Below, piece by piece: positions 9,830 to 46,953 of a stretch of 50,439 nt of DNA. The notes beneath the pieces are model-generated. The model made no database searches. It saw only the letters and a list, made by a program, of their open reading frames with translations, and was not told the DNA's origin. The DNA is taken from contig MQRK01249570.1 in assembly GCA_001938485.1 (NCBI GenBank), positions 1-50,439 of the forward strand, written 5' to 3'. Source of the DNA: Girardia tigrina (taxonomy: Eukaryota). How positions within the stretch are numbered: position 1 is the first letter of the stretch; each line of letters begins with the position of its first letter. The translations under genes and the position numbers were made by a program.

Positions 9830-10050
9830 ATTTATAAAAATTCACCAATTTATGGATTAATTAATAAAAAATTATTTGATTATGGAAAATGATTTTTTTG
9901 AGTTTTGATTATTTTGGAAATTCGGAACATTGTTGTCAGTGACTTGAATAATTTTTACGAATGGAATTTGGTAGCGAGAATCGTAATTGAAATTATTGAT
10001 TGTAAAGAAATTTAACGTGAAGGTGGTTAGACGAATTTTCTTGAGAAATT

Positions 10051-12441: not shown

Positions 12442-13012
12442 TTGGGTTGGCCAAAAAGTCATTGCATTTTTGAGTACGTCCTAATAAAAAGCTTGAAAAT
12501 ATAAAACGATGTGATAAAATTTAAATTTAATTATATATTCTGAAACCTTAATTTTCAGACTATGTTTATACAAAATATTAATTGATTTTGTTTTAATTTA
12601 TTACTTTACCGTCAATTCGAAATGGAAAATCAAAATGAGAATATTCGTCATGTTTTGTTGTATTATTTTCGCAAAGGGAAAACTGATGTGTAAGCTCATG
12701 AGAAGATATGTTTTGTATATGGTAGTGGTGACTCATTAAAACTTCGACAGTGTCAATACTGGTTTTCTAAATTTCGTTCTGAAAAATTTCATCTGAAAGA
12801 TGCACCATGCATCGGTCGACTATTTGAAGTTGATGGCGACAAAATAACAGCACTGATCAAATCTAATCCACATATGACGACAAGAGAAGTTGCAGAGACT
12901 CTGGAAATATCGAAATCAAGTGTTGGAAGTCATTTAAAGAAACTTGGATTTGTCAGTAAACTCGGTAAATGGATTGTTTACAACAATGTGGAACGCCGAC
13001 GATCATGGACAA
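12442..13012 (+). mobile_element. Mariner 5' half (family M1), internally deleted and truncated
   Basis: TA + TIR TTGGGTTGGCCAAAAAGTCATTGC; MENQNENIRHVLLYYFRKGK from 12622 with an in-frame stop; nearly identical to the reverse complement of ~22440-23003. Confidence 0.95.
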
Positions 13013-15901: not shown

Positions 15902-17934
15902 TATATTAGTTGCACATTGGTATATGCGGGGTTAATACATTGATGTTTTACACCATGTCCTTAAACTTTTAGTCGGTAAGTCACTACAACGTCAACATGA
16001 CAGTACATTACATAAACACAGATTTAAAGGATTCAATTTTTATTTCTCTATTAAAAGTCGTCTTTGAGATAGATTAATTTTAAATCTTTGTAGTTTTAGG
16101 TTGTGCTCACTGTAAAAATTAATGTGATAAAATGTTTCATTAAGTGGCACTTTAAAACTTTTTCTTATTCATTCTTATTAAAATGTTCCATTAAAATTAA
16201 AAAATGGAATTATAATTTCAAATTAACTCATTATAGTTGAATAAATCAAATGAATTTCACCAGACCTCATGTGTTTTACAATAATTTTTCTTGTCAACAT
16301 TTCGATTACAAAACACTAATTTGATAGACAAATAAAATATTTTTATTATGTAAAATGAAATATCATAATAAAAAATAATTAAGCCATTTTGATCAAATGA
16401 ATTATCGAAAATCTAATATTTTTTTATTTTCAAAGATTTAATAGTGATCATTAGAACACATAATTTTTAATAGGAAGTTGGGGTTGCATATTAAATACAT
16501 CACCACCTATAAATTATTAAAAAATCTTAATCAAGTTGTATATTGTAGTTTAGATATTACTTTTTCGGTTAAAGTAATATTTCTTTATGTGAGAAGTGGT
16601 TGCAACTTCTATATCAGAATTCATTTTTTTAAACACCAAAATTTATTTATATTATTCACATCTTTAAAATAAATTTTCCNNNNNNNNNNNNNNNNNNNNN
16701 NNNNNNNNNNNNNNNNNNNNNNNNNNNNNATTTAATAGATACATTAAAAGATATTTTTTATTTTTAAATAGATATTTTATTTTTTTATGATTTTCTTTTA
16801 TTATATCATTTTTAATTTTTTTAAAATATTTAAGAACACATTAAAAAAAATATTTTATATTTAAAAACTTTTTGATTTTTTAATAGTTGTTTTATTATAT
16901 AATTTTTAATTTTAAAATATTGAATAATCATATTAACATAAAAATATTTTACCCTTTAAATTAAAAAAAAATAATAAATTATTCAGACGAGATAAAAATT
17001 TAAATTAACCCCTCATACTTTATAAATGTTAGTAATTCTTTTTTTATTGTTGAATGAAGATTTAATTTCCTTAAGATATCAGTCGGAATCGATTTGATTT
17101 CCAAAACTTACTGATTTGATTGTAAGCATATTTTAACACTAAAATAGCCACGAGGACATTTTTGACAAGGTAATATAAAACCACGTCTATTTTATGACTA
17201 TAATTCCCAAAGATAATTTGTAAATTTTTCTAAATTTGCTAATAAATTTTTATAGGAGCTTGAAAAAATGAAGTCAATATGTAATGTCTTAAAATGGGTA
17301 TCATTTGAAACTATCATGTGGTATAAAATGAGCCCTTGGCTGTTCTACTGGTACGTTAACCACTACGTCAATCTACTTTATTTACATAGTAAAACGAAAC
17401 AAAATAACTCGATACAAATTCACAAAATTTATTATTTAGCACAGATCGATTTCAATTCAATTTTACCGCGTTTCCAAATTCGTACTCAAAAAAACATTCA
17501 AATACCACAGATAAACAAATTTAAGAAATTTTAACAAAGAAAATTCATATTAAAACATTAACATGAATTTATTCATTGGAAAATCTAAATTCGAAAAATT
17601 AATAATGTTACATTTTTATCATTTAATTCGTTTTAATTTTCAAATATTTTAAATAGTTTAAATTGTTTTCATTTTTTTAATTTGACTTAATTTTTTCTTT
17701 TGCTGAAACTTAATTAATTTGAAATAAATATAAATAATAAATATAAAATCATTTATTTAAAACAGTACTCAATATTTTTTGATCGGTTTTTATGGTCTGT
17801 TTCAAGTCAAACCAAATTTCCGTTTCTAATTAATTTCGATCTATTTTAATCTATTATTAAATGATTTTTAATAGAAATATGTGACAAAATTAATTAAAAA
17901 TTAAATCATCATAAAAAACTTATAAATCACCAAC

Positions 17935-18411
17935 CTGGCTGTGTGTTAAAAGGTAGGAACTGTTTATTATCAGACTGCTCATATTCATGTTATGAATTTT
18001 AGAGTTGATTAGAGCATAATTATTTATATAATCACTGATTTTCTTTGATATTAAGTTGATTAACCATTGAGACTTTTGAAGAACTTCAAGATTCTGTTTA
18101 TATACATCGGGATTATAATGTCTGATATACCAATAATTGGTAACGATAACAAACGTCAACAATGCAACAAGTAATACGAAAACGATTGTTACAGCAATAA
18201 AATGCATTTGTCCGAAACTTTGAAAGTACCGTCTTGATTTGAAACAGGAACTATAACTGGAAGGGTTTTGATTAATTAAAGACCAATCTGGAAATCGATT
18301 TTGGCTAATAATCCTTAAAGATAATTCGGTAAATGGTAGAAATCCATAGTTTGGTTGATTCGGAAATTTGGTGGCATCATTTTGGTTTCGAGTAAAATTT
18401 TCTATTGGTTT
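17935..18411 (-). CDS. Next exon of the same membrane protein (phase 0/0, 159 codons)
   Basis: Acceptor attacag|AAA; open frame KPIENFTRNQ...FIAVTIVFVLLVALLTFVIVTNYW...THSQ; donor CAG|GTTGGT; phase matches. Confidence 0.8.
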
Positions 18412-19667
18412 CTGTAATTATATATATGTTAAAAAATTAAATAAAAAATAAATTTAATTAATTTTTCTAATTCAACTTTTTTCAATCGTTTAGAATGCCT
18501 AGTGTAGTTAGAAAAAGAAATGTAATTTTGCAATGATTTAAAATTTAATAAAATTTTAAATTAAATTTAAATTAAATAGTGAAAATAATGAGATTGGCTA
18601 ATAAACTATTGATTTATTTTTTAAATAAACTGTCTGGTTTGTAAATATGTTAAAATATTATCAATTTAAAAATTTTGTCTCGTAATTTATTGCCATTTTA
18701 ACCTGGAGAATTTTATCTATTTCGGAAATGAGCTTTGTAAAAATTTTAAATCAGTTTTATAACTGGTAGGAATTTCTTTTACAAATACGTCATCCGTAAA
18801 TCAGGGTTAGCTCCGATTAACGCGTTCGAGGTTGCAGCTCTTTGTATTTGTTGCAACTATTAATGATATTTTCCTTCAATTATATCAAAATGAAATTTAA
18901 TCGAAAACTTGATATGGTTCTTAAAATTCGATTGAAACAACAAAATATTATGGCTAGTGTGGTTCTGCAGGACATTAAGGTTTGTCGGACAGAAGACCAT
19001 AATTATTTATATAATCACTGCAGGGTAGAAGACCATTTAACTGTGGAGGGTCTTATCAGCCACGGATCTGAATCGAATGCCTCACCAAATTCGTAGGACC
19101 ACTCTGTTATCTCGGATGCCCAACGTGTAGAGGACCAGTCCCATAGTAAGGAGGCCGCGGTGCTCAACGACTTGATATCATCGAGAATCGGGCCACTGAC
19201 GGAAACTGTTGCAAATATTTCACCGAGTTTTGTAAACCGTTCGAATACTTAATCAAGTCATAGTGCACATCACCCTCGATTGGTGTTGCTTCAAGCGAGG
19301 ACCAAGCAGATACGTTATTGTATGTTTCATTTGTTTTAGAATTACAACGGAGAAGTTTGATTAAGCATTATTCGTAAAGAAAGCAGAACTGATAAACATT
19401 TTTTTATTTTAATTTAAAATTGTGTCCAAAAACATGAATTTAAAAAATTCTGTAATTTAATTTGCAAAAACAATTTTTTTACATACAGTATTTGCACAGT
19501 AATATTTTTTTGACAAAATTAACCGGATCACCACAACTAGTTTATTCATTTTGGTCATTAATTCACACAGTCATGTTTGAACGAGGTAACTCGTCCACAA
19601 TCATGAATGGGTTAAAATATAGCTAAATGAAAAATAGTAACTGAAAACAGTTATTAATATTTGTTAA

Positions 19668-21618: not shown

Positions 21619-23003
21619 TTGGGTTGGCCAAAAAGTCATTCCGTTTTTTAGTAAAATATTTATTATCAAAAAATGACATGGATGCACAAATATTTTTACA
21701 CGATATACTGTCAATTATTTTCAATAACTTTCTTCCACCTTTCCGGTAGCTTCATTATTCCTGATTCATAAAAACCTTTGCCTTTGTCAGCAAAAAAGCC
21801 GTCTAGGAACGATTTGATGTCATCATCACTGGCGAATGTTTTTCTGTTTAAGGAATTCTGCAGTGATGTAAATAAGTGAAAATCCGATGGTGCCAAGTGT
21901 GGAGAATACGGTGGGTGCGGCAAAACCTCCCAACCCAGTGATTAGAGTTTCTGGCGAGTGGTCAAACTTGTTTGCGGTCTTGCGTTATCATGCTGAATTA
22001 CAACTCCTTTTCGATTTGCCAATTCAGGACGTTCCTGTTGAATTGAATGAGCCAATTTCTCCAGCTGACCACAATATCTGTCTTAGATGGAAGGACAGAA
22101 TTATATTTATGCGGGTTTGATAAACATTCTAAAAATTTATGTTTATGTAAATAATGTGTATTATCATGAGTGATATCAAAAGATCAATAATAATTTAGCG
22201 TATATAAATATATAGATTAGATTTATAAGTTATAAAAAGAAAATACGATTTAGGAATGTTCTCTATCAAAGAAAAAAAGGTTTCTTTCAAAATACTCAAC
22301 ACAGAAATTATGATGGAATATCATTCCTCGGAAGGAGTTCAAAAAACACAATTCCTTTAAAATCCCACCAGACGGAAAGCATAACCTTCTTTTGGTGAAT
22401 TTATGCTTTTGGGATCGTTTTTGTAGGCTCACCACGTTTTGTCCATGATCGTCGGCGTTCCACATTGTTGTAAACAATCCATTTACCGAGTTTACTGACA
22501 AATCCAAGTTTCTTTAAATGACTTCCAACACTTGATTTCGATATTTCCAGAGTCTCTGCAACTTCTCTTGTCGTCATATGTGGATTAGATTTGATCAGTG
22601 CTGTTATTTTGTCGCCATCAACTTCAATTGGTCGACCGATGTATGGTGCATCTTTCAGATGAAATTTTTCAGAACGAAATTTAGAAAACCAGTATTGACA
22701 CTGTCGAAGTTTTAAGGAGTCACCATATACAAAACACATCTTCTTATGAGATTGCACAGCGGTTTTCCCTTTGCGAAAATAATACAACAAAACATGACGA
22801 ATATTCTCATTTTGATTTTCCATTTCGAATTGACGGTAAAGTAATAAATTAAAACAAAATCAATTAATATTTTGTCTAAACATAGTCTGAAAATTAAGGT
22901 TTCAGAATATATAATTGAATTTAAATTTTATCATATCGTTTTATATTTTCAAGCTTTTTATTAGGACGTACTCAAAAACGCAATGACTTTTTTGCCAATC
23001 CAA
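21619..23003 (-). mobile_element. Mariner family M1, both TIRs, non-autonomous, carrying a 219-bp insert
   Basis: TA TSD on both sides and matching ~28-bp TIRs; ORF fragments MENQNENIRH..., QHDNARP, HPPYSPHLAPSDFHLF, GIMKLPERWKKVIENN. Confidence 0.97.
22093..22311 (+). repeat. 219-bp copy of 29273-29491 flanked by the 7-bp direct repeat GATGGAA
   Basis: Direct comparison shows about 5 substitutions; GATGGAA at 22086-92 and 22312-18. Confidence 0.95.
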
Positions 23004-24298
23004 TATCTCTTTTTAAAACGGATTTTAAATTTGAATTGTCTAACAAAGCCTTTTCCACAAAACTTTTATTTGATTTAAAATTCATTGACAACAAAATTCG
23101 CCATGTTACGTTCGAACATTATTTATTTTTAATCAACAATTTCAATTAAAATTCTCGCCACAAAATTTCGATTCACAATTTAATTTGAAAAACAATTCTA
23201 TTAATAGATTTGCATTATCCTCTGAATTTTGATTGATAAAAACAACTTTTTGATTCTCGAGTACACACCGTATAGCCTTTTTAGTGTACCTTTCGAAAGA
23301 AAACCTAGCTTCATTCTTATCCAGGTTTGGAACAGTAGGAATGGTTCATTACTCTTGACAAGATTCAGCTTAAAAAAACATGTTTCAAAGTTTTGTCCAT
23401 CACTGGCTCATTGTAAAAGCTAAGTGTGTGTTACATATATATATATGATATATAAAAGAGCCGTAAATTCCTACTGTCAATCTTCAACCGTTGAAGTTCA
23501 AAGTGCGGATTATCTAATATGGTCACAGTGTTTTTTAAATGGAAAAAGAATATGTTCATATGATGTCACATGTTAAAATAAAACGGTTTCCGAACGAGTG
23601 CACTGCAAGCAGTTCAGGTAAGTACTAAAACTGTGTCGTAAATATGTCACCCATTCTATAAAACTTTAATGTTGAGCCAGACTTGACTCAGTGAAGAGTC
23701 GCATTTTCCCATCACAGATATAAACTATGAAAAATTTAATTTCTCTCAAACAAGTCAAAATACCGTAGTACTAAATGTAACAGTCCGTTTTAATATTTTT
23801 TATTTCTAACTTCAAAAAAATTTTATTGCTTAAGAGAGATAAAAATTTAATATTTCTGAATGTTTTCCAAGAGACTTTCTTAAAGAAAAATATTTATAAT
23901 TTAATCCATAAAATAAATTAAAAAGAAAATGGTTTTCTGCTAGATTTTATCTTTAATATTTGAACGAATAAATTTATTATATATTTATATTTTCAAAGAA
24001 TTTTTGACTGCAAAATTAAAATAAAAATAATGTATTTATTTCCTAACATTATTCTAACAATTAAAACAACCAAATAATAATTCACTTTAAAAACTTAAAT
24101 TATTTATTCAATTCTTGTTAGATTTAATTAATTTCCTTTTATATTGATAAGAATGAATATTATATCCGATTATGTAAATTGCATTGAATTATCAATGACT
24201 AAAATAATTTTAGGGGGCGTAAAAGGTTATGGCGGTTTTTACGATTCACCTTTTAAACTATATCCTTAAAAAATTATTTTATCATTATATATCACATA

Positions 24299-25094
24299 TG
24301 TGCAGAATATTTTCGAATGGTGTTTATAGTATGTTGTGTTTGGTATGTTATTTTAGGATTGTGTTTCTCACACCCAGATTGATGTTTTTGAATGTTTTGA
24401 AACGTCAGATAATTCGGACAATTTTGAAATTTAAATAACAAATTTGAAATTAAATTAATATATTTTAATTAAAAAATGTATTGGGTTTGTAACTAAGTAA
24501 TTGCTGATTTCAGATATAGATGTTTCTCATGCCCATTTTTATGTTATGAACTTCTTCTTATATATGTTATAGGAAATGTCCGGTGTAATTTGAGCTGCAT
24601 CCAAGGAACCAAACTTAAAATTCGGATGTCTACTGTCGGCAACTTAGTTTTTGACCGAAAAGAATCATACTTTCGACGAGCGTGGAATTTCAAATTTTCA
24701 GGAAGATTGCAAAAGCTCATTGAGCAAAATAGGAAAACTTCATAGATTAAAGTTAATTTCAAGTAAAAAAACTTTTTTATTTCATTGAACAAATCGACAA
24801 TTACCTGGTTGTCAACCCAATATAATAATATTTTAAAAGTGCGTTATAACTTAAAGATTTATTTAATAATTTATTATTTAAAATTGGAAAATGAATTAAA
24901 AATATTTTTGAAAATAATTAAAAATTATTTTAGTAAGGAATTGTAATTTCAATTTGTTTGAATAATTAGAAGTTTAGAAATAGAATTAAAAATTTATTAA
25001 TCAACTACGGTGACTAACTAGGAATGTTTTCTTGAGAATTGTCCTTGTTGTTATGTCAATAAAAGTATTCAAAATCATATTAGTGTTCTTATTA
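24299..25094 (+). mobile_element. Solo-LTR-like element, family A copy 2, containing a mariner MITE
   Basis: Starts TGTGCAGAATATTTT, ends GTTCTTATTA; homologous to 1645-2180; TSD not clear. Confidence 0.65.
24481..24820. mobile_element. Mariner-derived MITE (340 bp) inserted in a solo-LTR-like repeat
   Basis: TA on both sides; ~30-bp imperfect TIRs TTGGGTTTGTAACTAAGTAATTGCTGATTT / revcomp TTGGGTTGACAACCAGGTAATTGTCGATTT. Confidence 0.8.
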
Positions 25095-25248
25095 ACTCTA
25101 AAGAGCAGGTTTCCTTCCATTTATTTATACAAAAATTTTGTTCGAATTATTTAACTATATTTAGATTATTAAACGAATTCCCGTTTCTTTTGCCAAGGAA
25201 TCAATACTTTGAACAAGCAGTTGAACTTTGGTTTTATAAAATAAAAAT

Positions 25249-26579
25249 TATTAAGAACATTTAAATCAGTCCCGTTTGAATTTTTATTACAATCACATTT
25301 GGAGTCATTATGACTATCAGAAAGTCTTTCATCCTTTGTCATCCTTCTAATTGGTTTTCTTATTTCTGTTTTTAATCATGATTATTCGAACAATTTTTCT
25401 AAATTATTTTTTAAAATATTTGACCTCTGTAAAATATTAATCAAAAAATAATAATTTTTACAATTTCTCAATAAATCCCAAAATAATAAAAAATGTCATC
25501 AAATTATTAAAAATGCAATTAATTTAAATTTTACTAAAAATTATTAAACTTAATTATTTATAATTCGAACATTTTAGTTATTAAATTTTTGTTTTTTAAA
25601 TTAATTATTATCATTATTATATATTCGTTTCAAATCAAAAGAAAATCAAATCAAAATAAATGGAAAATTAATTCAATATTTTTTATAATTTTGAAATTAT
25701 TCGATGGAAATTGAACAATTTGAATTGTAATTTTTGATTATTTAGTTATTGAAAATTATAGTGTGAAATGACCTTGAGTTTGTTTTGCGAAATTAAATTG
25801 ATGAACTTGTAAAAACGATGGAGTTTTTATTTGTTGAAATAAAATTTGATACGTGATTTAATGTCGTTTTGAATTGATTAAAAAGTGAATTTCTTTTCTG
25901 GATGCTGAATTGTGCTAATCGCGATGTTAAAAAAGACCGCAAATTTTAAAATTACAAAAACATTGAATGATACGATTTTTGATGCGCCGATTCTTCTCGT
26001 CGATATTATCAAACTCTAATCAATTTTAGATAAAAATTTAAATAGAAATAGTCAAATAAACGGCACAGTGTTTCTGTATGATCAGCGAATGTCGGTGTTG
26101 GATGAAATTTACAATGATTTAAATAGAAAGCAAAATGCCTTTGGAGAAAATTATTCCAATAAAATTAATATTTACAAAGCGAAATGTGAATCAATCAATT
26201 CGAAAATCGTTAAATCTGTGAAAGACTCGAAAGATTTAACAACAAATTGAATTCGAAAAACGTTATTTTTCATTCATTTCTCAATAAATGGGCGAAGCAA
26301 CTCATCCACAGAATTTCCCTGCGCAACCCTGCTACCTCGTCCGATTCTCGGGGCGACCTGAAGATCGGGTGGATCATTAATCTTAATTTGTGAAATTAAA
26401 AATATGAACTTATCAAATGATTATTTTAATTATGTTCGAATAGTCAATCCTTTAAATTTAAATAAAAAATAACAATTTCCATCTGGGTGGGAGAATCACC
26501 ATTCTAAATTCAACATACTTAAATCAACATACAGCATCCATACATTTACACATTCAAACAATTTAAAATATTCCTCACA
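25249..26579 (-). mobile_element. Solo-LTR-like element, family C copy 2, split by an 822-bp insertion
   Basis: 25249-25554 and 26382-26579 rejoin to a family-C unit; flanks AAAAAT on both sides. Confidence 0.8.
25555..26376 (-). mobile_element. LTR-like element T1 (822 bp), TGATCC...ATA, with a small ORF on the + strand
   Basis: Clean insertion into family C with TSD TTAAT (25550-54 / 26377-81); terminal ~63 nt similar to 33300-33363; ORF 26068-26250. Confidence 0.8.
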
Positions 26580-26719
26580 AAAAATCTACATGCGTAATAT
26601 TGTTTTAAAAAAATTAAAAAGTAACTAGCATGTCATATGGATTAAATAAAAATGAAGAATGTAAGGTTGAGGTTTACTCTACTAATTTATCGATACAAAA
26701 TTATCCATTCCTTGAACGC

Positions 26720-27180
26720 ATTTAAACTGGTGATAAAAAGTGGATTCTATAAGACAACTTTCGAGATGAAGTATCAAAACCATTCCCGAAACCTAAATTG
26801 CATCAGAAATAGTTATGGTGAACTGTTTGTGCGTCTTCTGCAAACATGATCCATGAAAATATCTTTATTCCTTATAAAGAGTAGTGGATTATTGTCTCTA
26901 AACTGATGAAAAGCATCATAAATTGCAAATTCAGTGTCCAAAAGGGATAAGAAGAAAAATATTTATTCTTTTCTAAAACAACGTTCGACCTCAAACAAAT
27001 TCAGCTATGAAACTTTATTGCCAAAATCATACCCAATCTACCTTTATTCATTCGATTACTATGTTTCAAACATCTTCAAACAATTTTAAGGGACAAACAA
27101 TATAAAAATTATCAAATAGTCCAAAACACCTTTCATAAATTCATGATCTCCATGACTCGCCTGTAGCTTCTACCGATATT
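26720..27180 (+). mobile_element. Ancient mariner remnant
   Basis: TGDKKWIL*DN...KPFPKPKLHQK from ~26726 and a degenerate SP.A.TD motif near 27157. Confidence 0.6.
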
Positions 27181-27346
27181 TTTATAAATAAAATTTATTT
27201 TAACGGAGATTTAAAAAAATAATCCTTAAAATTGCCGTAAGTTTTTACTTAACCTAATAAATTATGGATGCTAATATAAAATGAATGACAATGCATAAAT
27301 GTAAAATATTCTAAAAATTAAAATACATTAAAATTTCAAAAAATAC

Positions 27347-27716
27347 CTTTGTCTCGACATCTTTGGGTACTGAATTAAAAACATAAACTTTTCGTCCGAG
27401 AAAAATCCATTTTAATATTTCAAAAGTGTTATAAAATCGATAAATGACGATAAAACAATCGATGACCATGAGGAATATTCGAGCCTTTAATATTTTGAAA
27501 GTGGTCACAGATTTTATATTGAACTTTCCCGAATTATGAGGTTTTTCTCCACTTTCAAACATCAAACTGTTCGGATGATAGTTAACATATTTTGTATCAA
27601 ACATTCTATGATAAGATTTGAATTTGGCTTTCGCTTTATATTTAAATGGTTTTCCCTTAAACTGATTTTTCCAATAATCCCCATGTTTCTTGAAAACTTC
27701 AAATTGTTTTTCTAAA
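27347..27716 (-). CDS. Next exon of the same membrane protein (phase 2 in, phase 0 out)
   Basis: Acceptor aattttag|T; phase matches the upstream donor (AA+T = Asn); reads LEKQFEVFKKHGDYW...ARIFLMVIDCFIVIYRFYNTFEILKWIFLGRKV...VETK; donor AAG|GTATTT. Confidence 0.8.
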
Positions 27717-27970
27717 CTAAAATTACGAAAAAAAAATTATTATATCATGTATGAAAATAATGTTCATAAAAATAAATTAATTTCTTAGCTACATTATTCA
27801 TTTTTTAAGTCTCAAAATGAGATATCATATACAAGTATCGAAAAACGTTCATACTGTCCATCAATTAGTACTGTAATCTTTCGTACTGTGCGTGTTTTTG
27901 TGTGGGTTTCTCTTATTGCGGAGTCGAGTTTTTACAACCTAAATTTCAGACTACACTAGTAAAGTTTCTA

Positions 27971-29283
27971 CAGACCTGTCCAGAAAGTCTTGACCGATTT
28001 ATAGACAAGTGAAAGATAAGCATCTATTGTCATTTTCATCATCATCTCTAATGTGTTCAAAGTATTGCCACTTCTCCCACCGTTCTTGGAGTTTTCTAAT
28101 TACTTTGGTGAAGAAACTGCGAGGTTTCTGTTCAATCCAACTCTCCAACACTACTTGATTTTCTTCCGCGGAGTTGTAATTTCGATCTCGGAGGGCGGTT
28201 TTCATTGAGGATAATAAAACAAATCGGAGGGAGTGAGGTCAGGTTATTATAGTGGATGAGGCAATACACTGAACCCGATTTCTTGCAGCTTATTTACTGT
28301 TTTGTTGGCTGTGTGGGGTAATTAAGCCGCCTCCGCTTTTGTTTTATTATAGCAACAAGATGATTCAGCTGTTGAAAGTAGGTATCCACAGTAATTTTCT
28401 GTCCATGAGGAAGAACTTCCATTAGCAATACACCTTTGCAGTCCCAAAGAACTGAAATCATGTGCTTTCTGGGTGTAAGCACACGATGAACTTCAACTGG
28501 AGGACTGTCTCATTCTCCTCACCAAGAACGATAAGGTTGTGAGCCTTCATTGTCCTAATATATCAGTTGTCCAAGAAAATCAAAAGCCGATTGCTTTGCT
28601 AACAGCTCGTTGCATATTCTTTCTCTATTAGTCATTTGTTCAGGGGACAGTAGATGTGGGATCCATCGATTACTCATGAACTTTTTTCCCATATTAATGC
28701 CTCCGGGGAAATTTCCAACTCATGTGCTATGGAGCGACATGTGTTCTATTTGTCCAAATCCTGTTGTTGCAATATAGCGTCATCAATGTTCATTGACGGC
28801 CTTCTAGAGCGCTGTAGATATTCCACATTAAAATCACCGTTGTTAAACTGTGTTACCCATCGACGGCAAGTGCGGCCACTAACAGCACCACTTCCAACTT
28901 CTGCATTCATCTCTTAACATATAGTGGGTGGATTCAAATTACGTTTCCAGCAGTAATATCACGTTCCAATATCACGTTGACTCAAATTCATTTCGAATGT
29001 CATGAATATTTCGAATATTTCGAATATGACTCATATTCATTTTAACGCAATTTAACTTTAAAGCAATATTGCAAAATAATATTTATTTTCAAAACAATTT
29101 GTTAACTGATATTTTGAAATTAGTTTTCCAACAATAGGAAAAATTGATTATTTTTGAATTATATTTTACATAATCATTCACATATGTATATGTTATTTAT
29201 ACTGCAAATGTCATAGACATTTATCAATGGGTTCATGAGATACTTATAGAAAACTATCGGTCAAAATTTTCTGGACAGATTTA
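27971..29283 (-). mobile_element. Full-length degenerate mariner (family M3)
   Basis: TA TSD; 28-bp imperfect TIRs CAGACCTGTCCAGAAAGTCTTGACCGAT; MNLSQRDI..., RWIPHLLSPEQ, ISVLWDCKGVLLME, KLQERWEK; many stops and frameshifts. Confidence 0.92.
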
Positions 29284-29881
29284 TATTTATGCGGGGTTGA
29301 TAAACATTCTAAAAATTTATGTTTATGTAAATAATGTGTATTATCATGAGTGATATCGAAAGACCAATAATAATTTAGCGTATATAAATATATAGATTAG
29401 ATTTATAAGTTATAAAAAGAAAATACGATTTAGGAACGTTCTCTATCAAAGAAAAAAAGGTTTCTTTCAAAATACTCAACACAGAAATTATTGTTTGATC
29501 GATGTAAATAAAACAAGTGTTTTTTTGATAGTCGGTAGTCATGCACGGATTGATAGTTATTTGTATAACCGCTTCAACAATTATTAATAGAATTATTATT
29601 TGAGGAATGAGTGCTAAAAGATTTTTGATAAAACTAGCTAGAATCCAGACGATATGATTTAAAATTTATGTCAACGAATTAACATCTGAGTAATCAACAA
29701 AACCTCCTTTCATGAAAATATTATTTCTGATTCAAAACTGTATGATTAAAATTCTTGTTCTGAATAAAATGCATGTTGAGATAGAAAAGTCAATAGATAG
29801 CTTTGAATATGAATGATTTTTAATTTTCGGATAGCGAAGGTACACATTTATTGTCTCAAAATTATAATTCAGGATATTTGT

Positions 29882-29921
<40 letters not shown>

Positions 29922-30060
29922 CGAAAAAAAGTCATCTAGAAATTTACTACAAAAACATTAAATAATTAAGAATTTATTATGAAATTTCCGTATCGGATTT
30001 CGTTATAAATTATTTCAATATAATATTTTTTCTTGTAAGAAAAAATAATATAAAATATAA

Positions 30061-30581
30061 TGATAGGTATAAGTCATTGAGGTGACGGCTATCGGATCGA
30101 GTTTTGACGACGAAGACCCCTTATTCGTGCGGAGGTTCACCGGCGAGAAAGAACAGCGGACCGCTTCGCTGTCGGTCGTGATCCCAGCATGTAGAACGCC
30201 CGCCGGTCGACGGGTCGCTTTGGGTTGGTATTGCGATCGGTGTGTGCCTGTCCTCTGTTGTGCACCCCCAAACGCGGGGGAGGGTTGGTTCCACTTGAAA
30301 CCCTGGGCGGTCTCCACGATCCACTCTCGCAACACCGGTTCCGCTAGCGGTGCGGATTTCGGAGGATGCATGTTTTCAATCCTCAATTTTATGTCAAAAA
30401 CAAGAGACAAGAAGAGAAACAAAAAACGTCATTTAATTTTTATGTCGATTCAACAAGATGACACCAATTTTTAATTGTCTTGATTTAATAATGTTTCGTT
30501 ATTTCTTTATTTCAAAACAATAAGAAAAAAGAATAATACAAAGAAAAGTTTGCAAAAACTAAATGAAAATATGATACACTA
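30061..30581 (+). mobile_element. LTR-like element T5 (521 bp), TGA...CTA, GC-rich
   Basis: Abrupt GC rise at TGATAGG; TSD (A)TATAA at 30055-60 / 30581-86; AT-rich tail. Confidence 0.55.
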
Positions 30582-33299
30582 TATAAATAGAAATATGTTA
30601 GATTAAGATGTAAATATGTGAAATCAAAAGAATAAAAGGAATGAGTGTAAAGCCATGTACACTCACTATCAATATTTAAAAAATAAATTAAAGAATAATT
30701 GTTTTTGTTTAAATAAATTACTATTTTTTGTTATAAAGAATGATAAAAAATACAACAATATTTATATTTAAATAAAATTAAATATTTATAGATATCTTTA
30801 CATTTTTGAAAGTAAATATAATTATTTGTTTTCACAAGAAATAAAAATGATTGTTTCAAATGGAAAAAAAACAATATATTTTATTTTAAAATGAAAACAT
30901 TTTTTTCTTAAAAATAGAAATTAGATAAAAGAACGTCGCAATATTCTTAAAAATAATGCCATTGTTATAATCAATATTTTTATTTGATTAAATTTTGTTC
31001 ATTCAAAATTAAAAACGAAAGCTATTATTATACCCTTTCTTTCAAGGATACTTCGAAAGATCTAAATTCCGAAAGTAGTTCATTTTTAAATCTGATTTTA
31101 TTCCAAGTACGTCAGAAAGTAAGAAAAGAGAAACTGCACTTTAAATTTTTTTTGAACCTTCCATATCAACTTCCTCAAAATTTGCGGTCAAACGGATTTT
31201 TTGGAACAGCAAACCATGGTTTAAATATTTTAAAGGACTCTTGAAAGACAACATTTACACAAACAAAAGTTAAATCACAACATCAAAATGACATTGGGCA
31301 AATTATTTACACAAACATGAGTTAAGAAAGAACTAAATAAAAAAAAACATTGAAGAACACTAATAAAAAAAACTAGAATATCATATTCTGAATGATTTAA
31401 AGCATTTAACAAGAGTACTTCAAAGTTCAAAGCTTCCTCTCGAATAAATCGAATACAATTTGTGGATTACAAGCTAATCTGGTTTCTTAAATTTACTTTT
31501 CACGGGTGTAAACGCTCGTATATTATAGAGAAAAATCGAGATTAGTGAGGATTCACAATCAAGTCGATTGAGTAAGGTTACATTGTAAAAGTAGAATCTC
31601 TTCTGTTTCAATACATGAGTTTTCTGATTTACAGAAGGCATTTGATTCACATTATGAGCGACAGTTTTGTGAATCATTATTAATAAGACAATTCAACCCA
31701 TTATTAAACATTTAAAATGGACAAATTAAAACCGTTTCAAATTTTAAAATCTTTGATTAAAAGTTTTTAAACATTTTGAAAAATTATTATCCTATAATAT
31801 CTTTAATAAAAGCAACAGAAAAGTACATTATCCTTTTTAAACTAATTTTATAGAAAAGTAAAATTATAGCTAATAAATATAATTACTGATGATGGAAAAA
31901 GAATTTCCGAAACATTTACAATAATGGATTTCTAAAAAAATAGATTTAACAAAATTATTTTTCAAAAATATATTCATTAAAGAATAATCTCAAAAATTAC
32001 TTTTCAAATTACATTTGTAAAAGTTAAAACATAGATATTTAATTTTTAGAACGTTTAACCAACAAACTTTTGTATGAAAAAATATTTTCATCTTAAATCC
32101 CCTGCAACTGTTTCAATTTTTTAAATTTATTTTCCCTTTTTTTCTATCAACAATTATATTAAATTATTAGATTTTTTAAAATTTTATTTAATCCTTTACA
32201 ATCAGGGTACTCTGAATGATTATTTCGAAAAAACAGACATTTTATAGCAACGTAAATTTTATTTATTTAATCCAAAAAAGTAATTCTTACAAAGGCCTGC
32301 AACATCTGAGAGACAATCAATTTTAATAATGCATATTTTGTTTTAAACAATTTGATAAAAAATTGTTTTACTTTTCGTACTTAAATTCTTTCGTATCTCC
32401 ATTACTCTTAAGAATATCGACAAATTGTTTCTTCTGATGTCCATTATTAACAGGTGCATTTTATCTTACAATTTCTTCCTCCTCTAATTGATAATTGATA
32501 TTTTTTAATAAAATCAAGGAGGTGAAGAGGTGAACATTTTAAGATGTTATTACCCAGACTCTAAAATTTTTCGAACTCTAAAGAAGAAAAAAAATGTTAC
32601 ACAGTATTATGCATTTTACCATATCTGCCAGTTAAATATCAAAACTATCCATAGAAGCTTATTAATGCAGGTCAAAATAGGTTCATACCATTTTTGTCCC
32701 AATAAAATTTTCCAATACAAATATTTAGACCAATTTTAATATATACCGTCTGTTTGTTTGTTTATATGTTTGTACAATAAAAAAAATATTAAAAATGGTG
32801 TGTCTTCTTCATTTTGTTTATAAATAAATTACCATTAAATCTAAATGTTATTGAAATGAGACGCCTTAATTAAATAGTGCATAAATATAAGATATGTGTA
32901 TTTGCTACTAATCTTGCAAAGGATTAATCACACCATTCATTCGTGGTCCGTAGTTGTGTATTCTCGATGACAACACATGAATCATTGTTTTGCGAAAATG
33001 ATTTTTTTATTGTCCACTAATGTGTTTACAAATTAAATATAAAAAGATTAAATTCAAATTTTGGTTTTTTTCTAATTGTAATAACTTAATGATCTTTTTC
33101 AAATTTTTGTATTACTTGGATTCTTTACTAATTCTAGTTTATTTGGTTATTTCTTTGTAATGAGAAATTTTTCAAAATCAAACTACTGCGTTTCAGACAC
33201 AGGGGTGTTCTACCTTTTACCATAATTTACCATAAGGTGATTCCTTTGAATATTTCATATATATTTTTAAATTATTTTTTTTATTTAATTTAATATGTA

Positions 33300-34203
33300 T
33301 GATCCGCCCAACGACCAGGTTGCCCCGATAATCGGACGGAAGTAACAGGGTTGTGCAAGGAAACTTTCTCGTTGTGCTGGGCCCGTTTTAATTTGCTTTG
33401 TCGCTGATTGATAATCCGCAGCCGAATAAGATTAACAAATATCTCGTGATCTTCTTTTTCTAAGTTGATATTTTTCACTGAATATTTGAAATTAGCGGAA
33501 ACGACATCGTCAATCGATAGATCTTCAAACTCATCAATCTCGTTTGATCACACGTAAATCAACCGCCAAATGTCATCAAAGAATTGCTTCACTTCGCTTG
33601 TATTCGTGTGCCAGTACTCATTTACCAGTCGCTGCAGGATACAGCAAAATAGGAAAATCAGATTGAATTTCTTGTTGCAAGTTTCCATTAAGCGAGAGAG
33701 ACTCCTGCGGTATTCGGCAATCAGATCGTCGATTTGTGGCTCGTAAATACTGAAATAACTGCATCGGAAGAGCCCGGTTTTTCTCGAGACACTGTCGAAT
33801 ATGTTATTCAAATCGCTGATTCGTTTCATCTCATAAAAACTCCAAAGAAAATTGATAAAAACAGAAAATGATAAGTAAAAGCAATTTCGATCGATTATTT
33901 ATTCATTTCAAATTTTCAACCTTCAATATCATCCGATCTATTTAAACAAATTCTTTTTACAATTTCTTTGCATTAATCTTTTTTAAATTCATTATAATTA
34001 ATTTCCAACTAAAATTTTTACAAAATTTTCATTGTAAAGCTACAAACATAAAAAAAACAATTAGAATCACAAAAAAAATTCTCCTAGATTTTTCAAGGCG
34101 AATGAGAAAGAGAGAACGCGGTATCCATTAAATATTCATATATATACATATAGATAATTAAATGGTAATTAAGAATATAGTAACGATAATTGAATCCCGA
34201 ACA
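33300..34203 (+). mobile_element. LTR-like element T2 (~904 bp), TGATCC...ACA, with an ORF on the - strand
   Basis: Shares its terminal motif with T1; left flank ATGTA recurs at 34205-09, just after ...GAATCCCGAACA(A); reading frame 33898-33290. Confidence 0.6.
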
Positions 34204-34616
34204 AATGTATATATATGAATTGTTCTGGACCAACTCTCTGGAGATGACAGTTTAGGGTATTGATCACTAGAGTGTACTGAGTCAGGGTAATTAAATGATG
34301 TCGTGAGATATTCAAATTTTCATTTGATTTCATCAATAAATGTTACCAGAAACATGGAATCTTGTGAAACAGAAATACCAGTTTTCCTGAGCATACATTT
34401 CATGATTCAAACCTTCCATAGAAACAGAAAACCGGGACATTTTCCTTAAAAAAATTCCTGGAATGTTGAGATTTACTATCCAATTTATATTCCTGACCAT
34501 TTAGAAAAAAAGACTTGAAAATTTATCGTTGTCTTTGTCGAAAATGGAGATATTGTGTAGATAATCTTTTACATAATCTTTTTTTTAAAATATTCAATAA
34601 ATATTCTAAAATTTTC

Positions 34617-35728
34617 TGTCACATAATTACAAATCCATTCCGTAAGAATTTCAAATTCTATTTCAAATATTTAATTAAATTCAATATACAATTTATTTTT
34701 TTTTCTCTTTCATATTTTTGATAATCCATTCTCCATAATCAATAATTTTATTTTCACTTGAAAAATTCAATTTAAAATTCTCAAAGAAAATCATGACAAA
34801 AAGGAAAAAGAAAATCTTCATTTCGATTTCCGACAAAAATAAATTTAGATACCAAAAAAGAAAAAAAATTTACAATAATTTTATATTTCCTAAATCTTTA
34901 TACAATTGAACAATATTTTTTTTAAATATAAAAATCTTTAATGATTCTTATCTTGATATTTACAATCAAAACAATAAGGAATATAAATCCTTGATTTCCG
35001 ACTATATTTATTTTTATCAGATAGTATTTAAAAAATATAAAAATAGTTATTAAAAAGAATTTTCGAAAACAATTTAAATTGTAATAATAATAATAATAAT
35101 TACGGAATTCAAGACAAGAGTACCCCAACGCAACACTACTTCTTGAGATGAGGTTTAGAAACTCGTGAACACGATTTGAAACCTTCTAGTGGTGAATCTT
35201 TGAGAGAAAGATGGCGAAGATTTCAAGAGTTAATCAGGCATTATTGGATTTGATGGAAAGAAAAAGTTGTGTGGTGATTTTTAATAGTGAGGTGAGGGAG
35301 ATAAAAATGGAAAATGGAAAAGAAGGAGATTTAGTGTGGCTGTTTGATAAAAAAGACAGCAAAGTTACAGTGATCATGGTCACTGCTAATGGAAAGTATT
35401 TCGAGGGTACTTTTCGGTTGAGGGATTTTTGTTACTACTTGAAAATGGTGTTCGCTATTCAGGTCAAATGACAATGAAAAGAGGTAGTCACGAAAGCTAA
35501 CAATTCCTGCTAATTATAGGCTTCTATGGCGAGTATGTGCGGAGATTCCTAACGGCTGTCATTTGAGTCTCTATGTCGTTACTGATGAGCAGAATGTCTA
35601 TGTTCATGGTAGTCTATATTCGTCAATCGCGATATGTAATCAAATCCGATAAAAAACGAAAGGTGTCACACTAAGGCTCGACGTGTTACTTATAGCGCAA
35701 TATTGCGGTGACTAATTTAGCCAGGTCA
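34617..35728 (-). mobile_element. LTR-like element T3 (1112 bp), TG...CA
   Basis: TSD TTTTC (34612-16 / 35729-33); AT-rich left end and GC-richer right end; + strand ORF remnants resemble the T2 ORF. Confidence 0.5.
35211..35471 (+). CDS. 86-aa ORF of unknown family inside element T3
   Basis: AAAGATGG start context; balanced globular-looking composition; no recognised domain. Confidence 0.3.
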   Translation: MAKISRVNQALLDLMERKSCVVIFNSEVREIKMENGKEGDLVWLFDKKDSKVTVIMVTANGKYFEGTFRLRDFCYYLKMVFAIQVK

Positions 35729-36427
35729 TTTTCAATAGTAATAGAAAATATAATGCATTAAAGAAAACTAAAAATTTTATAGTTATTTAGTGAATTTTCT
35801 TCATGAATAATAAATAAAATAAGTTATTTTTTTTGTATAAATGATGACATATTTAAAAAAAACACTTAAATGTGAAGATGGAAGAAGACCTAATTTTGTT
35901 AAACTTGATTTCATCGGCGTTGTGTACAAAAGTGTTAAGAAATTAACAAACATATGCAGGAACCCTATGGATAGGAATATCCATCACGTTATTCATCTTT
36001 AACTGTACCAGGGACTTTAAAATGCATTAAGATCTGTTCTAGACTTATAAATTTTTAAATGAAAGCGGATATTGGAATTTGCAAACTTGGATCGGGATTT
36101 ATTCTTAAATTTCTGAATGATGAAATGTGCCAATTTACAGCGGTTTAAGAAACATCACGAAGATAAAACGCCAATTAGACTGTATATGTCCGAAGGCAAA
36201 CTGGATTCTGCTCACTCCAACAACAGAACTAAAACCGGAAGTCAGTTATATTTTGGGTCGACTGACTCCATATTTCTTTAAATTTGCATTAGGTGATCTC
36301 ATACGATGAAAGATGTAGAATAATCTGGTCTTATGTTAAAAAATGAATCTTCGTTGCATTGAATTCTATAATAAAAGTTTAATTTCGTAGCTGTTTTATT
36401 TTCTTGTTCAGTATAAGACTTATTGAG

Positions 36428-36488
36428 TATATATATATNNNNNNNNNNNNNNNNNNNNNNNNNNNNNNNNNNNNNNNNNNNNNNNNNN

Positions 36489-36541
<53 letters not shown>
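36428..36541. repeat. (TA)n microsatellite around an N gap; other (TA)n at ~29885, 39198, 39830, 42835, 50408
   Basis: Directly visible. Confidence 0.95.
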
Positions 36542-36545
<4 letters not shown>

Positions 36546-39201
36546 AAGTATGTAATATGAATTGAAAAGTAATTTTATTTATGCATTAGTTTTTTTAATA
36601 ATTAAACAATAATTTATTACTGAATCTCGGATGATAGTTTTAAAAATGTTATAATTACATTTTAGTCTATTTTATTTATAAATATATATGATAACTTCTT
36701 AATAACAATAATTGTAAAATCGTGATAATTATAATTTTTTATAATTATTTAATATCTTGTTCAATAATGAATAGAGATATAAATAATATAATTATTTTAA
36801 ATTTTAAAAAATTTCTTTCTTAAAAACGTTTTACTTTAGAACAATTAAATATTAAATGGAAAATATTAAAATGAATAAAAATTTCAAAAATAATAAATAT
36901 ATTTTCATAAGTGTCTTTTATAGATTTTCTCTTTCGTATAACAGATTTTACTTCCGGTATCGTTTTTATATGTGTTCTTAATTGTATATTATTTAAATAA
37001 AGTATCCTAAATAATATTTATATTATTTTTTAAATTATATTATTTTTTTTAAAATTAAGTACGTATTTCAGTTACATATATTTAATTTATTTTTTATGCA
37101 CATTGCGATTGTAATGTTTCAGAAATTTGTTTTAAAAGCTTTTGTTGAGATTATTTCTAATTTTCCTTTAGAAAAAAACATATTCGTCTTTATTAGAGGT
37201 TTTTGGAAACTCGTCAGAATTATTAATATCAGACATTAAAACTTTTATTATACCACAAAAAAAATGTTTAAATCTAATATTTAAACAAATTTATTTTTTT
37301 GAGAAACTATTTATTTCATAAATCTTAAACCGATATAGATAAAAATACATATAAATATTCATATTTGCTTTTATTATTACTTCTATAATTACGATAACAC
37401 TTTAAAATATTTAATTGTTTCATTTAATTTTATTACTTTTTTAAAATCGCCTCACATAAAAATTATACACTTTTTTTACTTTTTATATTATANNNNNNNN
37501 NNNNNNNNNNNNNNNNNNNNNNNNNNNNNNNNNNNNNNNNNNNNNNNNNNNNNNNNNNNNNNNNNNNNNNNNNNNNNNNNNNNNNNNNNNNNNNNNNNNN
37601 NNNNNNNNNNNNNNNNNNNNNNNNNNNNNNNNNNNNNNNNNNNNNNNNNNNNNNNNNNNNNNNNNNNNNNNNNNTTTAATATAACTTTCTTTTTTCGAAT
37701 GTTACATATTTAATTATATAAAAATTTTAATTTGTACATATTTTATATAACTTTCTTTCAAAAATTTTCCTAACATTTTTAATTCCTAACAGTCTTAATA
37801 CTAATACTATCACAATATAAATTGAAAGTAATCATGATTATACATCTTTTTATCTTGTTAAAAAATAGATGATTAAAATAAAAAGAAATATTATAAAGTT
37901 CAATTAAAATTTAAATTCATACAGCATCAAAATTTCACTACAACAAGAACTATATTGATAACTTGAAGAAAGGGTTGTTTTACAGAGTTAGGGCTTTTTG
38001 CTCTTATGATAATAGTGCAGTTGATGAACTTTATATTCTCAGAAAAAGCTTCATTAAACGTATTTATCTGATTATGACAATTAAAGAAACCACGAAAGAG
38101 GTGCAGTGTCTTGATATTGTAAAATCAAACCACTTTCTAAATAATTTTGAAGATGTTAAAATGTCATTTATAAGATTATAGGTAATCTCTGAATCTCAGA
38201 CGGAATAATATCTATAGCCTCTAAAGCGAGAAACGTCTTTATAATGAAATCGAGATGAAAACCAATATTCTCAACGAATTGAAAAGTCACGGGTGTCAAA
38301 ACTCGCCCAGTGAATAAATAAACCGTCATCTCAAAACATTGATTAGTGAATATTCACAGTTTTGGGGGTTGAATAAACTCATTACCAATTCTCAAAATTT
38401 CAAAAATGAGTGTTTCATTTTCCAAAACGAATTCTAATTCTCATTATGAGGGGTTGTATTCGGAATAAAATTCTTATCACAATGTTGTTAATTTTGATTA
38501 ACACTAATTAATATAATATAATAAGGATAATAATAATTATTTTTTAAATTATTATTATAATATTATTATGTTTACATCTAAAGGATATTAATTTAATATT
38601 GTGTCACTTAATATTAACATATGATTTATTAATTATTAATAAATTTTTATTTTTATTTTTTGTCTTTTTGATGTGAAAGTAAATAAAATTTTTAAAAATA
38701 ACTGAAATTACTCAATTCTACATAAATAAGTATATAATTTATGTTTTAAGGTTTTTTCTAGGCACCGAAGTTTGTATTTTTTGCCAAATCACGAGGAACC
38801 CAAATACTGGTTGAATTAACTTTTTTCATTGATTTTAAGCATCGGAGAACAACATTACGTTTTTGGTCAAACTCTTTGGTAATTTCATCCAATTTTTGTT
38901 TGAGAGATTCTTTAACTATAACTCAAAGAGCGGTGGACATCCAAATCTGTGGGTATTTTTCAAATTATAAATGTCAGATCGTTGCACTATACGCTCATTT
39001 ACAGGGTCAGTTTTTCATTGATGTTTTTAAATGTAATACTGTCTTTCTTTTGCGGTTTATATCTAAAAACTTGATTGCCATTTTTATTTAGTTAAAATAC
39101 ATTATAATTGTTTGGTGGAATAAACTAAATTACTTTTTAAAATGTGCGCGTTTGAAATTGTATATGAATTTGTATTATGTACTTAAAAAAATAAAAATAT
39201 A

Positions 39202-42867: not shown

Positions 42868-43180
42868 GGTTGGTTCACGACATAATGAAAATTTTTAACT
42901 TCTTTCTCTCCACAAGTCTAAATTTGTTTCATGCCATGCAAGTAACATACAGAGCAAATATGAAACTCACTGAAGAATGTTTAGAGGTCATTCAAGATTC
43001 TCAAAATTTTTAATAGTCTTTTTTCCAGCCCATAAATGTGCAAAGCCAGCTGAAAGTAACTATTGCTTAAATGATATTAGCAAGAGATTAAATGAAATGA
43101 CTAATGGTGATCATTGATAACCAAAGTAAACAATATGTGTTCCAGTTTTTCATCTGATGAGACATTAAATTTAAATTAAG

Positions 43181-43683
43181 TGTGAGGAATATTTTAAATT
43201 GTTTAAATGTGTAAATGTATGGATGCTGTATGTTGATTTAAGAATGTTGAATTTAGAATGGTGATTCTCCCACCGTGATGGAAATTGGTATTTTTTTTAT
43301 TTAAATTTAAAGTGATTGACTATTCGAACATAATTAAAATAATCATTTTATAAGTTCATATCTTTAATTTCAGAATTAAAATTAAGTTTAATAGTTTTTA
43401 GCAAAATTTAAATTAAATGCATTTTTAATAATTTGATGTCATTTTTATTATTTTGGGATTTATTGAAAAATGGTAAAAATTAATATTTTTAATTTATATT
43501 TTCATAGGTTAAATATTTTAAAAAATAATTTAGAAAAATTGTTTGAATAATCATGATTAAACATAGAAATAAGAAAACCAATTAGAACGATGACAAACGA
43601 TGAAAGACTTTCTGAGAGTCTTAATGACTCTAAATGTAATTGCAATAAAGATTTAAACGAGACTTGTTTAAATGTTCTTAATA
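43181..43683 (+). mobile_element. Solo-LTR-like element, family C copy 3 (503 bp)
   Basis: TGTGAGGAAT...GTTCTTAATA; TSD TTAAG (43176-80 / 43684-88). Confidence 0.85.
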
Positions 43684-46894: not shown

Positions 46895-46953
46895 TTTTAC
46901 TTTAAGATTTACTATCCATTAATAAAAACCATTAAAAATCAAATAAAACTCAC

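Follow-up and report, generated by a model that had tools for sequence, protein, structure and literature searches.

Solo long terminal repeats with host-exon cargo from a BEL/Pao lineage of Girardia tigrina, and a probable frame rule linking cargo to ubiquitin-Gag

We analyzed a 50,439-nucleotide stretch of Girardia tigrina DNA (contig MQRK01249570.1 of GenBank assembly GCA_001938485.1, forward strand; hereafter, the window), in which three insertions, T1, T2, and T3, had been read from the sequence alone as one family of long terminal repeat (LTR)-like elements, each carrying a related small protein. T1 and T2 are almost certainly solo LTRs of a BEL/Pao retroelement lineage that carry spliced host exons as cargo. 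Across their family, the cargos are RNA-derived fragments of unrelated host genes and lie inside the LTR rather than between LTRs, where they are probably kept in frame with a downstream ubiquitin-Gag reading frame. T3 is a separate, single-copy insertion. The two family members and the duplication that bounds the first are as follows.

25555..26376, + strand: T1, solo LTR of the BEL/Pao family, sense strand +; its first 8 bases are decayed in the window copy.
25550..25554, no strand assigned: left target-site duplication of T1, TTAAT, with the right copy at 26377-26381, from an empty-site alignment.
33300..34203, - strand: T2, solo LTR of the same family as T1, sense strand -.

T1 is bounded by perfect TTAAT repeats on both sides and interrupts a dispersed repeat, whose empty-site copies in the window lie at about 9495-9830 and at 43181-43532. 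This AT-rich repeat has three window copies (9336-9830, 25240-26580, and 43168-43693), the middle one of which hosts T1. T2 is flanked by ATGTA on the left and, on the right, by ATGTA preceded by one additional A. Copies of the family have TG...CA ends. The two elements have a GC-rich end in common (78% over 77 nt), toward which an open reading frame (ORF) is directed in each; the opposite terminus, decayed in the window T1, is also common to family copies. Searches of the assembly to which the window belongs (1.43 Gb in 255,254 contigs), the genome referred to throughout, returned at least 46 matches for T1 (40 of 2299 candidates scored) and at least 43 for T2 (40 of 940 scored), and the left-end 16-mer has 1451 exact matches vs. 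1 for a reversed control. Among 61 copies with both ends (redundant contigs counted), the 5-bp target-site duplication (TSD) shows no mismatch in 38 and one mismatch in 15, or 53 of 61 together, while windows of 4 or 6 bp give no perfect case. The boundaries, shared GC-rich end, approximately 5-bp duplication, and ORF direction that the sequence-only reading gave for T1 and T2 are thus borne out, and both elements are multi-copy with consistent termini.

The GC-rich end is followed by TGG at 76 genome matches, 35 of which read CA-TC-TGG (manual count), and by the primer site, at no more than one mismatch, at 42. Over 20 nt, this primer site complements the 3' end of a tRNA-Met(CAT) gene of the same genome; three such genes are clustered at L252:138-1066, the first of which matches the element primer site over 20 nt, and its A1-U72 pair marks it as the initiator tRNA. 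The primer site follows T1-type LTRs at loci L035/L180, L233, and L262 and T2-type LTRs at L115, L192, and L193, which fixes the orientation: the ORF is read in the sense direction, the GC-rich end being the unique 5' region (U5). A polypurine tract (PPT) precedes the left end in several loci, and L185 and L188 are complete, each with two LTRs and a 5-bp TSD, such complete pairs being found only in these short-LTR relatives. The solo-LTR reading of T1 and T2, by which copies from their retroelement lineage should elsewhere flank retroelement genes, therefore stands. The first 60 loci all looked stand-alone, with fixed ends and mosaic interiors, which would favor Pack-type non-autonomous DNA transposons; given the primer site, PPT, paired LTRs, and retroelement genes, together with the missing cargo introns and terminal inverted repeats no longer than a few bases, that reading is refuted and keeps scarcely any credence.

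BEL/Pao elements are recognized by their Gag, protease, reverse transcriptase (RT), RNase H, and integrase make-up and by a 5-bp TSD. The internal domains of the family follow the BEL/Pao order, DUF1759 Gag, aspartyl protease, RVT_1, Peptidase_A17, rve, and DUF5641, and at L257 the integrase lies downstream of RNase H (rve, E 6e-05; DUF5641, E 6e-16). The internal region measures 4.3-5.8 kb and the LTRs ~0.4-1.4 kb; the shortest LTRs (~445 bp) have no long ORF, and stops or frameshifts are present in all internal regions read. In three elements (L184, L187, and L188, on G000:C189076, C222569, and C236425), the primer site and PPT are ~4.3-4.4 kb apart and the element ends after RNase H, with no integrase, which suggests an integrase-less lineage moved in trans. 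At L180 (G000:C215056:67500-77499), a T1-type 5' LTR and primer site precede a Gypsy-type element (zf-CCHC, RT, RNase H, integrase) that interrupts the leader a few hundred bases in; since the Gypsy-type RT belongs to the interrupting element, it is not the family's own. The giant Ty3/Gypsy Burro elements, which had been cited for their extra ORFs, do not fit as a parent: the domains are those of BEL/Pao, and neither a Gypsy-type pol nor giant size is found in the family. The passages of PMC6431247 that we drew on describe planarian Burro as Gypsy-like, longer than 30 kb, and equipped with extra host-like domains in its internal region; host-like domains in an LTR-element polyprotein are common to both, whereas the T1/T2 family is BEL/Pao, has the 4.3-5.8 kb internal region given above, and carries its cargo in the LTRs.

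At the inner border of U5, both window elements contain a second stretch complementary to the primer tRNA.

26289..26376, + strand: T1 tRNA-complementary box and U5, ending in CA; the box matches at 10/13 in the window copy and at 12/13 in most T1 relatives.
33300..33386, - strand: T2 tRNA-complementary box and U5; the box is at 33386-33374 and matches at 12/13.

Over its 13 nt, the box is complementary to the anticodon arm, and to the stem next to it, in the tRNA-Met that also matches the primer site. This fixed motif lies 86-89 nt from the LTR end; LTR types diverge from one another upstream of it, and many cargos sit inside the LTR just upstream of it. The box is kept even in a variant with a different U5, a long T1 variant (L075-L088, ~1390 bp) with an added beta-propeller fragment and a U5 of only 40 nt; in one copy of that variant (L082/L058), PPT and primer site are both present, as in a tandem array, and a 3-nt spacer keeps the frame. 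This retention points to the box as a cis element that would be needed by the retroelement and that captures could not remove; it may also pause RT and favor a template switch. According to the passages of PMC4974528 considered here, reverse transcription of Ty1 and Ty3 is primed by initiator tRNA-Met, which binds a site made up of several parts, and in Ty1 the primer site falls within the GAG ORF, as we infer for the T1/T2 family; the additional tRNA-pairing boxes of Ty1, however, are found 3' of its primer site, whereas here the box is ~88-91 nt upstream, in the LTR, at the cargo boundary. Those passages describe neither LTR cargo nor a ubiquitin linker for Ty1 or Ty3.

The cargos of T1 and T2 match host exons as follows.

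26001..26054, + strand: T1 cargo, host exon 1 of 3, matching G000:C220488:5360-5412, followed there by GT; 91% identity.
26055..26141, + strand: T1 cargo, host exon 2 of 3, matching C220488:13654-13743 with AG...GT borders; an 8.2-kb intron is absent; 94% identity.
26144..26253, + strand: T1 cargo, host exon 3 of 3, matching C220488:13801-13925; a 57-nt intron is absent; the window copy has small deletions and a frameshift.
33705..33835, - strand: T2 cargo, host exon 1 of 4, on C232884; 95% identity.
33592..33704, - strand: T2 cargo, host exon 2 of 4, AG...GT; one locus on four redundant contigs, e.g. C204262; 92% identity.
33492..33591, - strand: T2 cargo, host exon 3 of 4, matching C254124:15865-15757, AG...GT; in-frame stop in the window copy.
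33422..33491, - strand: T2 cargo, host exon 4 of 4, matching C254124:8121-8052; a 7.6-kb intron is absent, and the cargo ends at the exon end.

In T1, positions 447-699 (T1 numbering) match the three C220488 exons; the first ~30 codons of the ORF lie outside this match, and no source was found for them. The T1 parent exists in two versions (L238 vs. L241) that differ at 13 of 380 aligned bases, and at six scored sites the LTR copies follow one version at four and the other at two. In T2, the 5' junction falls at a microhomology around GAGATG, the ATG being at 33829-33827. Two T2-matching exons with AG/GT borders lie 7.6 kb apart on C254124, with a WD40 exon further along, and the upstream exons were located on other contigs by predicting splice donors (one splice-donor match proved to be a mutated LTR copy and not a host exon). 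RNA-type contigs from two studies leave T2 at 33421 with the same loose end, which leads to one genomic site, an exon start. These RNA runs were used as contigs (word shares 0.04-0.10) and give occurrence and host exon joins rather than strand, start, or expression level. The T2 parent may resemble TAF5-type proteins, a likeness that is not confirmed. Searches with the T2 cargo against Atlas gave no usable match, and among 1.84 billion representative proteins no cargo homologue was found, the two matches both being to the U5 translation; further runs of the cargo protein searches, as well as PDB sequence searches, were empty. The predicted fold of the T2 cargo has a predicted local distance difference test (pLDDT) score of 42.7, and an Rfam search of 24000-37000 found no ribozyme or structured RNA, only two chance-level matches.

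Other LTRs of the family carry other genes. A third LTR type contains an INTS6 cargo from which a 90-nt intron is missing, so that introns are absent at two junctions in T1, three in T2, and one in INTS6; further LTR cargos are OSTalpha/TMEM184, TMEM135, a PHOSPHO-type phosphatase, and a beta-propeller. The beta-propeller assignment is weak (Pfam PF16755, E 0.027; Atlas, 0.95), and its presumed Nup214-like identity is not confirmed by that match and has no genome match; another cargo may resemble the N-terminus of HECTD1, likewise unconfirmed. Hsp90 fragments of varied lengths lie not in the LTR but in the 5' leader, in frame before ubiquitin (L190:1979-2665, with Pfam E 4e-29, and L191, L233, L260, and L263). 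In six copies, an AT-rich GT...AG segment of 90-105 nt, each length a multiple of 3, precedes the leader Hsp90; treating it as an intron with the first acceptor did not raise the in-frame count (5 of 20). Microhomology is apparent at the INTS6 3' junction, which falls mid-exon where the mRNA resembles the box, and at the T2 5' junction; the T1 junctions gave no clear case.

The T2 3' junction lies at an exon end, which would also fit splicing into an LTR acceptor and weighs against capture by template switching there; exon trapping thus stays alive as a second route. By this route, a host transcript would splice into an acceptor in the 5' LTR of an intronic element, the chimera would be packaged, and nonsense-mediated decay would purge out-of-frame products. 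A related 657-bp LTR has TTTCAG directly before the point at which the T2 cargo ends, and several cargos start near the host N-terminus (a PIG-C-like one, at a weak E of 0.023, and the TMEM135 N-terminal region). The mid-exon INTS6 3' junction and the microhomology at the T2 5' junction argue the other way, and the introns retrieved from the T2 parent locus, which contain N gaps, showed no family LTR. On balance, we consider exon trapping improbable as the general source of the cargos, and template switching by RT onto host mRNA the likely one.

The mapping of the cargos to different host genes bears directly on the claim that T1, T2, and T3 encode one small helical accessory protein under selection, a claim now largely refuted and, in our judgment, very improbable. 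LTR accessory genes of the retroviral type are exemplified by sag of mouse mammary tumor virus and HBZ of human T-lymphotropic virus 1; here, no single conserved ORF under purifying selection was found, and the ORFs are fragments of different host genes, with other cargos elsewhere and neutral variation among copies. Aligned with each other, the T1 and T2 peptides reach a score of 48, where shuffles average 31.5 (uncorrected p = 0.014 for a single chosen pair of frames), a value that favors relatedness; the stretches aligned nevertheless come from different host loci, and of the paired motifs IIDRN (T2) and ILDKN (T1), the former lies in LTR sequence upstream of the ATG and the latter in a host exon. 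T3 frames against T2 give p = 0.26-0.61, with p = 0.017, uncorrected, for the best of 120 frameshift joins, and the LNNIF peptide of T3 is unsupported. No outside homologue of the cargo part appeared among the 1.84 billion representatives.

Stops or frameshifts interrupt the exon-matched part in 22 of 40 T2, 20 of 40 T1, and 7 of 13 INTS6 copies; the remaining 18 T2 and 20 T1 copies, with neither, could be read in favor of a protein-coding role. After removal of near-duplicates, however, private and shared variants in 39 T1 and 39 T2 copies agree with a neutral star model that includes the GC-to-AT bias seen in the data (P 0.29-0.99), and the selection that had been expected across copies is absent against this mutation-matched null. 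A synonymous excess among shared variants (ratio 0.41-0.45) disappeared against the same null and was set aside. Fixed differences from the host are 1 synonymous and 5 non-synonymous in T2 and 8 synonymous and 3 non-synonymous in T1; the T1 excess could mean selection on the cargo and to that extent speaks against our reading, although it is partly explained by divergence between host alleles or paralogues, of which two versions exist. The open frame looks as though it were selected for its phase with Gag and not for its peptide.

The evidence for such a phase begins at L178:700-1666, where one frame of 321 amino acids runs from the LTR through U5, primer site, and leader into a ubiquitin-like domain (E 4.5e-19) that ends in GG and continues into Gag; as far as ubiquitin, L159, L185, L190, L261, and L264 share this phase, interrupted by no more than point stops. 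By sequence, this GG-ending domain lies in frame directly before Gag, and it is constrained between lineages (proportion of synonymous differences, pS, 0.80-0.85 vs. 0.30-0.36 for non-synonymous differences, pN). Every box-adjoining cargo whose host frame can be fixed sits in the U5 frame: T1 and T2, from their exons; INTS6, OSTalpha/TMEM184, TMEM135, and the PHOSPHO-type phosphatase, from Pfam; and, weakly, the beta-propeller. The leader Hsp90 is in this frame as well. In a six-frame Pfam scan of 141 ORFs from 34 of 36 LTR clusters, with representatives not chosen by frame, which limits ascertainment, the box-nearest match of all three recognized sense cargos was in the U5 frame. By manual count, the U5 frame is the longest open run in 29 of the 36 clusters, with 6 against and 1 tie, and open runs of at least 44 codons number 22, 1, and 3 in the three frames. 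The U5 length classes of 86 and 89 nt (+2 spacer) and 40 nt (+3 spacer, one copy) share one common phase; in 16 of 21 copies, a whole number of codons separates the primer site from a leader landmark, the spacing ranging over 78-327 nt, and the larger shared leader indels (3, 12, 15, 42, 84, and 162 nt) keep phase. Based on these sequence comparisons, we consider it probable that cargos are kept in frame with ubiquitin-Gag.

Several observations weigh against this frame rule and the reading built upon it. Of 27 decayed copies, only 10 keep ubiquitin in frame with the primer site, which at face value is no better than one third; phase-breaking indels look mostly small, private, and scattered, although a single-base loss recurs in L155, L184, and L188. 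U5 shows no amino-acid constraint (pS 0.17, pN 0.26), which fits a need for an open frame only and does not prove translation. Because related LTR types have off-frame stops near the box in common, the 36 clusters cannot be counted as independent. The six-frame scan places off frame an OSTalpha piece lying upstream in L148 and a borderline DUF2949 match in T2, with an antisense zinc finger at a distance of 456 nt upstream in L099; L093 has an off-frame DUF7041 piece as well. Since Met codons occur within the leader itself, and one also opens Gag after GG, initiation does not strictly depend on a start codon in the LTR. The four T2 exons, spread over three contigs, presumably form one parent gene, and the RNA runs, being contigs only, reveal neither the start nor the strand of a transcript, nor a poly(A) site, translation, or cleavage.

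Some of these points would be expected if the same solo LTRs had captured RNA but carried the cargo as a neutral passenger in an untranscribed U3 (unique 3') region, with frame agreement due in part to chance and in part to ascertainment. The neutral decay of copies, the unconstrained U5, and the 10 of 27 in-frame copies all agree with such a passenger, as does an AATAAA/ATTAAA directly before the box in T1 and T2. It does not account for the three of three sense cargos in the U5 frame in the scan whose representatives were not chosen by frame, for the T1 and T2 frames fixed from host exons, or for leader length variants that are multiples of 3 in 16 of 21 copies, and we regard it as unlikely, if less so than exon trapping.

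We propose, tentatively, an in-frame exon-sampling cassette in the LTR, in which the box would set the site at which RT jumps and the ubiquitin linker would uncouple Gag from whatever N-terminus has been captured; we would put this at a little short of an even chance. In this proposal, transcription would start upstream of the cargo, which would thus lie in a long repeat (R) region. During minus-strand strong-stop synthesis, RT would leave the element RNA at or just upstream of the box able to pair with the tRNA-Met anticodon arm, copy a co-packaged host mRNA, and return at a second microhomology, so that both new LTRs would inherit the cargo. Translation would begin in the LTR, and out-of-frame captures, losing Gag or RNA stability, would die out. 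Cleavage after GG by host deubiquitinases would release Gag, leaving the amino-acid sequence of the cargo without consequence. Recombination between LTRs would then leave many solo copies such as T1 and T2. The complete in-frame ubiquitin-Gag model, with every mechanistic step, could be correct, and we hold it with the same reserve. If the cassette is real, host fragments that keep the frame would be tolerated and freed as separate peptides from full elements, and cargo would have spread as hundreds of promoter-bearing solo LTRs.

Capture of host RNA by LTR elements has precedents. The parts of Tan et al. 2016 (PMC5131818) that we used describe LTR-mediated retrocopies of animals, in which spliced, truncated pieces of host mRNA are joined to LTR elements at microsimilarities; they include multi-gene chimeras, one formed by the Pao element BATUMI, a recurrent switch site near exon junctions (BLASTOPIA), and retrocopies copied further as non-autonomous elements. 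Intron-less host fragments are common to those cases and the T1/T2 family. In the retrocopies of those parts, however, the host piece replaces part of the internal ORF between the LTRs, and "in-frame" there is relative to the parent protein and not to the element Gag (PMC5131818); in the T1/T2 family, the cargo lies within the LTR, only Hsp90 being internal, and it is doubled into both LTRs, multiplied as solo LTRs, and in phase with the element Gag. A looser parallel comes from cytopathic pestiviruses: bovine viral diarrhea virus (BVDV) acquires host RNA pieces, often mosaic, at a few polyprotein hotspots, and ubiquitin-like inserts at its NS2/NS3 junction belong to the rearrangements by which NS3 release is increased, as given in the passages of PMC13517609 consulted. 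BVDV is an RNA virus without reverse transcription, non-replicative recombination being the explanation favored in PMC13517609, and the likeness is one of analogy only.

Within BEL/Pao (Belpaoviridae), the family shares the DUF1759 Gag, protease, RT, Peptidase_A17/RNase H, integrase after RNase H, DUF5641, and 5-bp TSD. It departs from BEL/Pao elements as generally known in the GG-ending ubiquitin-like domain before Gag, the Hsp90 leader pieces of some lineages, the variable, cargo-bearing LTRs, and the one lineage without integrase after RNase H. In the open literature, we found no account of BEL/Pao LTRs with host exons inside them, nor of a fusion of ubiquitin to Gag, subscription journals and Repbase lying outside the scope of that search. 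In known LTR-mediated capture, host sequence lies between the LTRs, usually at the cost of element genes; here, capture happens in the LTR itself, so that every insertion duplicates the cargo, which is then not lost when a solo LTR forms. Should the frame rule and ubiquitin linker hold, they would give a simple reason for the free swapping of first exons and would make a recombination hotspot set by the tRNA box testable. Scattered sense copies of household-gene exons could also feed small-RNA silencing of the parent genes, and such copies will mislead gene annotation in this genome.

The third insertion and its recognizable pieces are as follows.

34617..35728, + strand: T3, single-copy TG...CA insertion with a TTTTC duplication, outside the T1/T2 family.
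35135..35360, + strand: T3 piece with ~70% likeness to the pre-PPT (integrase C-terminal) stretch in other LTR elements.
35401..35649, + strand: T3 piece from a PP2A/PP4-type phosphatase gene, decayed; 57% over 30 amino acids, E 7e-08.

T3 had been grouped with T1 and T2 as an LTR-like family member. Its TG...CA ends and TTTTC duplication agree with that description; its family membership does not hold, since T3 has neither family end and lacks the left end, box, and U5 of T1 and T2, and it is single-copy: all 14 candidates in its own genome were scored and gave 14 matches, only T3 itself being full-length. The piece at 35135-35360 has a weak protein likeness to DUF5641 (pairwise E 0.002-0.005) and no Pfam match. 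Possibly, T3 is a cargo-bearing unit, an LTR or deletion derivative of another lineage, with its PP2A/PP4 piece ~80 nt from the CA end.

Elsewhere in the window, mariner-type pieces with Mos1 helix-turn-helix matches lie at 12440-13012, 22439-23005, and 13436-13927, two inverted copies among them being 96-99% identical. Open frames of 403 and 165 codons at 46950-48161 (-) and 17920-18417 (-) have no significant Pfam match and are possibly host exons. GC-rich islands at 14966-15424 and 30073-30474 have frames open on both strands, with no significant Pfam match in the frames tested, and at 2684-2773 a 15-bp unit is repeated five times within an open frame.

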